The notes beneath the pieces were generated by a model, which was not told the DNA's origin, did not search any database, and saw only the letters and a program-made list of their open reading frames with translations. Made by a program: the position numbers and the translations under genes. Below, piece after piece: positions 27,467 to 28,284 of a stretch of 60,897 bases of DNA; the first letter of the stretch is position 1; each line of letters opens with the position of its first letter. The DNA lies in the NCBI GenBank assembly GCA_944391075.1, contig CALXSG010000005.1, forward strand, positions 1 through 60,897, in the 5' to 3' direction. This stretch comes from an uncultured Rickettsiales bacterium. GTDB lineage: Bacteria > Pseudomonadota > Alphaproteobacteria > Rickettsiales > UBA1997.

Positions 27467-27470
27467 TTCC

Positions 27471-27504
27471 AAAATTGAAAATTGAAAATTGAAAATTGAA
27501 AATT
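27471..27504 (+). repeat. (AAAATTG)x4 plus AAAATT heptamer run, left arm of an inverted repeat
   Basis: Its reverse complement matches 33 of 34 nt of the runs at 28001-28034 and 28121-28154. A shorter run lies at 28241-28267. Confidence 0.9.
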
Positions 27505-27507
27505 ATT

Positions 27508-27858
27508 ATGCTTGAATCAGATAATATTATACAAAAAAAGAGTTTTGATTTTGCTTTATTAATTATTGAATTGTATAAGATACTTAATAAAAATAATGAA
27601 TTTATATTATCTAAACAATTATTAAGATCTGGTACAAGCATTGGAGCTAATATTGAAGAAGCATTACAAGCTCAAAGTAAAGCTGATTTTATTTCTAAAC
27701 TTTCAATATCTTTAAAAGAAGGTGTTGAAACTAGATATTGGTTAAAATTATTAAAAGAATCAAAAATTGTGGAATACAATTTTAATGAATATATTTTAAA
27801 AGTAAATGAAATCATAAATATTTTAACCAAAATTATAAAAACATCAAAAGCTAAATAA
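27508..27858 (+). CDS. Four-helix-bundle protein (23S rRNA intervening-sequence protein / Avd family)
   Basis: SKQLLRSGTSIGANIEEA...KADFISKLSISLKEGVETRYWLKLL matches the family signature (QL.RS..SI.ANI.EG ... KE..ET.YWL). The ATG at 27508 is preferred over the TTG at 27496. Confidence 0.75.
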   Translation: MLESDNIIQKKSFDFALLIIELYKILNKNNEFILSKQLLRSGTSIGANIEEALQAQSKADFISKLSISLKEGVETRYWLKLLKESKIVEYNFNEYILKVNEIINILTKIIKTSKAK

Positions 27859-27915
27859 TTTTTATTTTTAATTATTAAATTTTCAAATTTATAGTTTATT
27901 TTATTATTTTATTAA

Positions 27916-28267
27916 TGAAGTTGTTTAATTGTAAGATTGTGAATATTGATTAAAATATTTTGATTGTTTTAATTCTTTTAAAATGTTTTAATGAAAAATT
28001 AATTTTCAATTTTCAATTTTCAATTTTCAATTTCTTGAAGTTGTTTAATTGTAAGATTGTGAATATTGATTAAAATATTTTGATTGTTTTAATTCTTTTA
28101 AAATGTTTTAATGAAAAATTAATTTTCAATTTTCAATTTTCAATTTTCAATTTCTTGAAGTTGTTTAATTGTAAGATTGTGAATATTGATTAAAATATTT
28201 TGATTGTTTTAATTCTTTTAAAATGTTTTAATGAAAAATTAATTTTCAATTTTCAATTTTCAATTTC
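27916..28267 (+). repeat. Tandem repeat, 3 copies of a 120-bp unit (last copy 7 nt shorter)
   Basis: The units start at 27916, 28036 and 28156 and look identical by eye. Each ends in an (AATTTTC)n run. Confidence 0.95.
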
Positions 28268-28284
28268 TTAAAAACGGAGTTTTT

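Follow-up and report, generated by a model that had tools for sequence, protein, structure and literature searches.

A four-helix-bundle protein gene between inverted heptamer arms in the groES-groEL spacer of an uncultured Rickettsiales bacterium belongs to a widespread type of operon-resident cassette

Amongst the closest described counterparts of the element considered here are the intervening sequences (IVSs) with an open reading frame (ORF) in the 23S rRNA of Leptospira and Coxiella. The element itself lies between groES and groEL in a stretch of 60,897 nucleotides from an uncultured Rickettsiales bacterium (assembly GCA_944391075.1, contig CALXSG010000005.1; the whole stretch is referred to as the window), and it contains a gene for a four-helix-bundle (4HB) protein enclosed by inverted arrays of heptamers. 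In the 23S IVS of Coxiella burnetii, the S23p ORF (PF05635) is preceded by three tandem GACAGAT heptamers, the number of which varies between strains, and RNase III cuts this IVS at the first heptamer, inside the stem formed by the inverted repeats (PMC4990558). With the ORF-containing IVSs of both genera the cassette in the window shares a sense PF05635 ORF inside inverted repeats and a long stem, and with that of Coxiella also a 5' arm of tandem heptamers and, as proposed below, the reliance on host transcription (PMC4990558). It differs from 23S IVSs in its host transcript, which is the mRNA of the groESL operon, in an extra module of ~110 nt together with spare right arms, and in that its cleavage by RNase III is suggested only by analogy; from the IVS of Coxiella it differs further in having an ORF under purifying selection.

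With respect to the host operon, Segal and Ron reportedly described in 1995 that the groESL transcript of Agrobacterium tumefaciens is cleaved endonucleolytically between groES and groEL. The likeness consists in one transcript giving rise to a groES and a groEL message of unequal stability, a separation which is proposed here for the window as well; the Agrobacterium operon is not known to have an inserted gene or long inverted arms, and both the nuclease and the site differ. A further comparison is offered by the heptameric repeats of Xanthomonas. According to the passages of Rehm et al. (2015, PMC4692102) drawn upon here, Xanthomonas campestris has 186 GGGAATC arrays of unknown function, 70 of which occur as convergent pairs, and groES is found among the repeat-associated genes. 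As described there, these repeats resemble the arms in the window in being tandem heptamers, mostly of about four units, which are intergenic between co-oriented genes and form ~70 convergent (inverted) pairs per genome. However, the same passages treat them as G-quadruplex simple sequence repeats and make no mention of enclosed 4HB genes, and the heptad AAAATTG of the window is A/T-rich and cannot form a G-quadruplex.

The identity and the anatomy of the groES-groEL cassette can be given with high confidence. The gap between the end of groES (27179..27466, + strand; Pfam Cpn10, E = 1.5e-31; TAA stop codon at 27464-27466) and the start of groEL (28285..29952, + strand; 555 aa; Pfam Cpn60_TCP1, E = 7e-81) measures 818 nt in a window with a G + C content of 25%, and the coordinates of the original prediction were all confirmed. 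For groES the 95-aa form is given, as called in the conspecific contigs; a longer ORF starts at 27164. Along the + strand, on which all elements of the gap are read, 4 nt (27467..27470; UUCC in the transcript) separate the groES stop codon from the left (5') arm at 27471..27505, which comprises five heptads with an AATT core, (AAAATTG)x4 followed by AAAATTA, and which Tandem Repeats Finder (TRF) delimits as (AAAATTG)x4.9 at 27471-27504 with 100% matches. This heptad array ends 3 nt before the ATG of the 4HB gene (27508..27858), which codes for 116 aa, and the stop codon of the latter is abutted by a degenerate proximal right arm (27848..27890) of 43 nt with 79% complementarity to 27471-27513. 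Between the proximal and the distal right arms lies a non-coding spacer module (27891..27999), blocks of which are partly conserved in relatives and which has no Rfam match and no similarity to 4HB genes. A remnant of an older 4HB gene was considered as a candidate for this module and rejected, the best score in a tblastn search with 87 4HB proteins being 18.5 bits as compared to 22.3 bits in shuffled sequence.

The distal right arms stand at the ends of three tandem units of 120 bp, which were delimited by TRF (120-bp period, 2.9 copies, 27916-28266, 100% matches) and by repeat search and each of which ends in (AATTTTC)n. Unit 1 (27916..28035) and unit 2 (28036..28155) are identical, and unit 3 (28156..28267) is one heptad shorter. 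The corresponding arms are R1, TAATTTTC(AATTTTC)x3 AATTT (28000..28034), R2 (28120..28154) and R3, which has four heptads (28240..28267) and lies 17 nt upstream of the groEL ATG; the groEL Shine-Dalgarno sequence GGAG was read from the sequence at 28276..28279. That each unit carries a right arm reverse-complementary to the left one had been predicted correctly, but the match had been put at 33 of 34 nt, the actual values being 34/34 for R1 and R2 (perfect inverted repeats of 27472-27505 with 28000-28033 and with 28120-28153) and 27/27 for R3. All of the 11 heptamer array matches in the window fall within the arms of the cassette, as compared to 0.01 expected in shuffles, and neither 4HB genes nor heptamer arrays were found in the rest of the 60.9-kb window. 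No rRNA or other relevant Rfam family was found in the window (gathering cut-off and E <= 1); the insertion site being the groES-groEL spacer, the cassette does not reside in a helix of 23S/16S rRNA as is characteristic of rRNA IVSs.

The assignment of the ORF to the four-helix-bundle family first found in 23S IVSs was confirmed by scores above the respective cut-offs for PF05635 (E = 1.3e-25, 90.1 bits, cut-off 33.8) and TIGR02436 (E = 6.9e-30, 103.5 bits, cut-off 24). Residues 4-114 also match PDB 2RLD (E = 4.5e-29), an entry with five chains, and XCC0516, a 4HB relative, is a toroidal homopentamer (PMC4990558). Among orthologues the 4HB gene has dN/dS values of 0.07-0.27; it is thus under purifying selection, and the protein is therefore functional. 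The bAvd protein of diversity-generating retroelements (DGRs) is likewise a homopentamer, and it binds nucleic acid. The two proteins have a homologous four-helix-bundle fold, but that of the window occurs without a reverse transcriptase or template and variable repeats and in a different genomic setting. For 4HB proteins other than those of DGRs, we know of no demonstrated binding.

Pairing of the two arms is supported in silico as well as by covariation. In RNA folding of three-unit and one-unit alleles, the arms were paired in both the minimum free energy (MFE) and the centroid structures (z = -6.6 and -5.5), and in the window allele the left arm was paired with R1 in both. Duplex energies with the left arm amount to -41.3 kcal/mol for R1 and R2, -34.8 kcal/mol for R3 and -22.2 kcal/mol for the proximal arm, and the predicted stem comprises ~35 bp, mostly A-U, with no more than 3 nt between its inner end and the start codon of the 4HB gene. 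UUCC (27467-27470) and the GGAG of the groEL Shine-Dalgarno sequence (28276-28279) form an outer helix at the base of the stem in the MFE folds of both the three-unit and the one-unit allele; this pairing is not conserved in the A-type relatives described below and carries little weight. As the folds, the energy of the duplex and the covariation agree in this respect, the IVS-like architecture of the original prediction is borne out.

Arms of two types occur amongst the related loci, which are designated by L numbers in the following. G-type arms, (AAAATTG)n with (CAATTTT)n, are found in the window and in L085, and A-type arms, (AAAATTA)n plus one AAAAATG with (TAATTTT)n plus a matching CATTTTT, in L088 and L091. 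Covariation was assessed over 35 pairs in 7 alleles aligned in a fixed register, with 500 shuffles and with slid partners as controls. In this alignment, 94.3% of the cells were paired as compared to 37-66% for slid partners, five pairs had changed on both sides (13 cells; G-C to A-U and U-A to G-C), and the covariation score of the arms was reached in 0/500 shuffles. Mismatches include one G.A in L006 and two in L090 that result from a shifted unit.

The locus in the window is one member of a widespread type of operon-resident cassette in which a 4HB gene stands between inverted arms of five heptads. Homologues of the 4HB protein were found in at least 7991 of 8000 scored candidates at E <= 1e-5, proteins with 50-70% identity being very numerous, and the family statistics are based on 77 non-redundant 4HB loci (L092-L177 plus the groESL loci). 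A lag of 7 was the best self-match period in 82% of the upstream and 75% of the downstream flanks, in contrast to 4% of the ORF interiors. Clear heptamer arrays on both sides were present in 53 loci, and in 23 of these the upstream consensus heptamer and the reverse complement of its downstream counterpart are the same, with 14 more differing at one position. The mean heptamer distance is 1.04 within as compared to 2.38 between loci, and 0/5000 permutations were as good; this test on consensus heptamers, 31 of which are distinct, replaced a cross-locus comparison of the arms, which is weak in that similar A/T-rich heptads recur from locus to locus in many cases.

The heptads themselves consist of a conserved core AAT[T/G] (A in 58/63, A in 61/63, T in 62/63 and T/G in 61/63) and three variable positions, and their information content after phase rotation amounts to 4.18 bits as compared to 2.92 +/- 0.09 bits after internal shuffling. 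The number of heptads in the 5' arm peaks at five (27/77 loci if counted strictly, 36/77 if a single degenerate unit is tolerated), only 3 to 5 loci having more, and the arms of the window, with five AATT-core heptads on each side, have the heptads of this class. [quoted passage not shown] Read on the sense strand, the 5' arm is rich in G and poor in C (223 G vs. 44 C; 46 loci vs. 2; p = 8e-12), and the reverse holds for the 3' arm. This polarity fits a strand-specific role in the transcript, although evolution by transitions could also give rise to it. That five heptads face five subunits in the pentameric relatives is a lead and not a result.

Unrelated bacteria have cassettes of this build in operons that are likewise unrelated to one another. 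They are found between the genes for a nucleoside transporter and PNP (L092), between rnfC and rnfD (L095-L097), mutA and mutB (L104), and moeA and moaC (L113), between two dihydropyrimidine-dehydrogenase-like subunits (L119) and, in three resistance-nodulation-division (RND) efflux operons, between a membrane-fusion protein and an AcrB-type pump (L114, L118, L158). A fatty-acid-oxidation operon carries two cassettes in the order fadB, 4HB, thiolase, 4HB, acyl-CoA dehydrogenase (L093, 1334-3395), the heptads of which differ, so that arms are not uniform within a genome. About seven times, a cassette resides in the leader of a recN-like gene (L100, L107, L108, L115, L116, L126, L147). At this site, in seven contigs, a 568-aa gene of the SMC_N family lies downstream of a divergent gene of ~335 aa, with the Pfam assignment made on the gene of L100 and the other six grouped with it by ORF size and layout. 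Twice, the right arm is followed within ~30 nt by a tRNA gene, namely tRNA-Glu on the same strand (L151, 1417-1518) and tRNA-Thr on the opposite strand (L106, 2846-2952). In the published annotation of Flavobacterium columnare, a 4HB gene lies between gmk and nadD (PMC5524665). Finally, in Xanthomonas arboricola (L178, 2409-2857), accB is followed by heptads of the GGGAATC type, a frameshifted 4HB pseudogene, (CCCATTC)n and accC; this pair is a 4HB cassette, which ties at least one GGGAATC-type pair to the cassettes. No paper linking the GGGAATC repeats of Xanthomonas with 4HB cassettes was found in the literature searched.

In the immediate relatives of the window, GroEL is 100% identical in the metagenome-assembled genome (MAG) BRZ_AG__bin83 of an uncultured Rickettsiales bacterium (L005) and 92% identical in the MAG E06__bin57 (L006). 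These two are the only ones of 80 genome loci with a 4HB gene between groES and groEL; protein look-ups place the same arrangement also in the metagenome contigs L001-L004 and L085-L091, one of which is from a gut metagenome. A comparison of the spacer across relatives, as suggested along with the original prediction, accordingly has two sides, in that related uncultured lineages have kept the 4HB cassette but the other 78 alphaproteobacterial groESL loci have gaps of 42-152 nt without a 4HB gene. Directly upstream of groES lies a 355-aa ORF (25928-26995, - strand) that has no Pfam match. This position is variable between strains, the ORF having 350-356 aa in some conspecific contigs and being absent in L001.

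Between the window and L085, dS is equal for groEL (0.56) and for the 4HB gene (0.56), which fits vertical co-inheritance of the G-type cassette. In turn, L085 and L088 have GroEL proteins that are 99.6% identical (dS 0.05) and 4HB proteins that are only 71% identical (dS 1.1), and their arm types differ. When aligned, the two are nearly identical as far as the groES stop codon and again from the last heptad before the ribosome-binding site of groEL, with divergent sequence in between, and in the A-type alleles their own right arm is followed downstream by the stub of a right arm of the G type. Therefore, the cassette has been replaced at the groES-groEL site as a unit bounded by the arms, and both an element-specific process and ordinary recombination through groES and groEL fit this exchange.

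The reading that we consider fairly probable is that of a promoterless 4HB cassette of the IVS type which resides in an mRNA and the arms of which pair to a stem of ~35 bp that is probably cut by RNase III. The cassette would be transcribed from the groES promoter within a groES-4HB-groEL message; co-transcription with groESL is inferred because no terminator was found on the + strand between groES and groEL, promoter-like sites are not in excess, and the window contains no CIRCE operator. The five-heptad 5' arm would then pair with the complementary 3' arm, so that a mostly A-U stem would close a loop holding the 4HB ORF, and RNase III would probably cut this stem, thereby releasing a 4HB RNA and separating the groES and groEL messages. 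To RNase III processing of the groESL stem as such, we attach moderate confidence. The cassette would be inherited with the operon and be exchangeable as a unit bounded by its arms, and the triplication of the 120-bp unit would represent a copy-number variant at the strain level that adds spare right arms and that the element does not require.

Several points weigh against this reading. Cleavage by RNase III is suggested by the homologous IVSs of rRNA, which is only an analogy, and a stem with hardly any pairs other than A-U may breathe, or ribosomes may open it during translation. Nor does the model account for the module of ~110 nt that separates the degenerate proximal arm from the perfect distal one. 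In addition, the S23p ORF of Coxiella has been reported as apparently untranslated and decaying; since the ORF in the window is conserved, the two elements need not work identically. Finally, the G.U-compatible mismatches in the arms (86) do not significantly outnumber the A.C mismatches (62; p = 0.058, sign test non-significant), and as these counts do not separate RNA from DNA, the arms could have their effect in DNA, either in place of pairing in RNA or in addition to it.

According to such an alternative, the arms would be terminal inverted repeats or single-stranded DNA hairpins of a mobile cassette, acted upon by a recombinase in trans or by the 4HB protein itself, and their pairing in RNA would be incidental. 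Besides the mismatch counts, which did not favour RNA, the arm-bounded exchange between near-identical strains would be in line with this, as would the ~70 convergent GGGAATC pairs in Xanthomonas genomes, which, as far as they are described in the passages cited (PMC4692102), suggest bursts within a genome. A pair of this type flanks the 4HB gene that separates accB from accC, and the AAT[T/G] core, which all heptads conserve, likewise points to sequence-specific recognition. However, no transposase, integrase or reverse transcriptase was found in or adjoining the cassette, and there is no target-site duplication and no direct repeat flanking the arms, so that the target-site duplication and transposase by which transposons and miniature inverted-repeat transposable elements are recognised are both missing, although a factor acting in trans would be compatible with this. 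Ordinary homologous recombination via groES and groEL can also account for the exchange, the co-orientation with host transcription (37/43) together with the G-rich 5' and C-rich 3' arms fits a role in the transcript, and the homologous IVSs of rRNA are cut as RNA. As the sole explanation of the arms, a function in DNA is hence rather unlikely, yet such a role is possible alongside pairing in the transcript, and the two do not exclude each other.

Another explanation had been raised in the original prediction, namely that the 120-bp units supply groEL with its own, triplicated promoter, in which case the arms would be a by-product. The string TTGTAA-16-TAAAAT that had been put forward as an example is indeed present once per unit and agrees with the consensus at 9/12 positions, but it is not conserved in L085, L088 or L006, and promoter-like sites are not enriched in this region of 25% G + C (19 as compared to 14.2 +/- 3.8 in shuffles). 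The CTTGAA box, also cited in favour of a promoter, is confined to the junctions where units join, and in conspecific strains the unit occurs once. These data do not support a triplicated groEL promoter, and we regard this explanation as improbable.

The copy number of the units has to be considered separately. Three units are found in just one further contig, L002, the whole of which is contained without a difference in the window, so that a single short-read assembly underlies the count of three. By comparison, L001, L003 and L005 have one unit each, and L004 has two diverged units, from which it follows that the duplication is real and not due to misassembly; it is, however, polymorphic within the species. 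That the structure as a whole arose artificially, through the collapse or expansion of repeats during assembly, might be argued from the occurrence of three perfect 120-bp copies in a single assembly and from the fact that short-read assemblers do not reliably count perfect tandem copies, but the cassette with both arms is present in at least five other conspecific or related assemblies from different samples, and since the diverged units of L004 cannot arise by misassembly, an artefact is very improbable.

Least probable of all, and hardly to be entertained, is that the gene codes for an Avd accessory protein of a DGR. In favour of this, PF05635, to which Avd is homologous, is the family most often found with DGRs (PMC10053308), but there is no reverse transcriptase and no template or variable repeat within 5 kb on either side in any allele (the neighbours in the window being Cpn10, Cpn60, a haloacid dehalogenase (HAD) hydrolase, glycosyltransferases and GH130), the gene is positioned between groES and groEL, and the protein has no match in PHROGs or PADLOC.

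Elsewhere in the window, a type II CRISPR-Cas locus occupies 12523-20280. It includes cas9 (16738-20280, - strand), coding for 1180 aa with HNH and RuvC_III domains, cas1 (15783-16721, - strand) and a CRISPR array of ~42 units with the 36-nt repeat GTTATAGCTTGCGTTTTTAATTTCCTATGTTAGAAT.

The architecture of IVSs is known from rRNA, and the operon-resident type of 4HB cassette was not found described in the literature searched, which did not cover subscription journals and in which, save for the papers on the Coxiella IVS and the Xanthomonas repeats, neither operon-borne 4HB cassettes nor their heptad arms were described. For the PF05635 family of '23S IVS proteins', with its thousands of members, we know of no role outside DGRs that has emerged in 30 years. 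The TRAP protein forms an 11-mer ring that binds 11 GAG repeats in RNA, and by analogy only, the number of repeats equals the number of subunits here as well, with five heptads and a pentameric family. A tentative hypothesis, which we regard as possible and not as probable, is that 4HB genes with inverted (AAT[T/G]NNN)x5 arms constitute unrecognised, widespread selfish or regulatory cassettes in operon spacers and in rRNA, and that the pentameric ring would bind one heptad per subunit, in a manner like TRAP, and thereby control stem formation, excision by RNase III, its own translation and possibly the spread of the cassette. If this were true, such cassettes would account for much of the long-noted surplus of simple repeats with a heptameric unit across bacterial genomes, the GGGAATC repeats of Xanthomonas among them.

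At the groESL locus, the architecture of IVSs is seen within an mRNA operon that is essential, and the comparative data connect published but unexplained heptamer repeats to a gene. They also provide the PF05635 family with a testable anatomy, comprising five AAT[T/G]NNN heptads per side, the sense orientation in operons and the exchange of whole cassettes. With hosts that can be cultured, Xanthomonas, Bacteroides and Flavobacterium amongst them, it can now be tested whether protein-coding cassettes are excised from mRNAs by RNase III, whether such excision would uncouple paired subunit genes like groES and groEL or accB and accC, and what the ligand of the pentameric protein may be.

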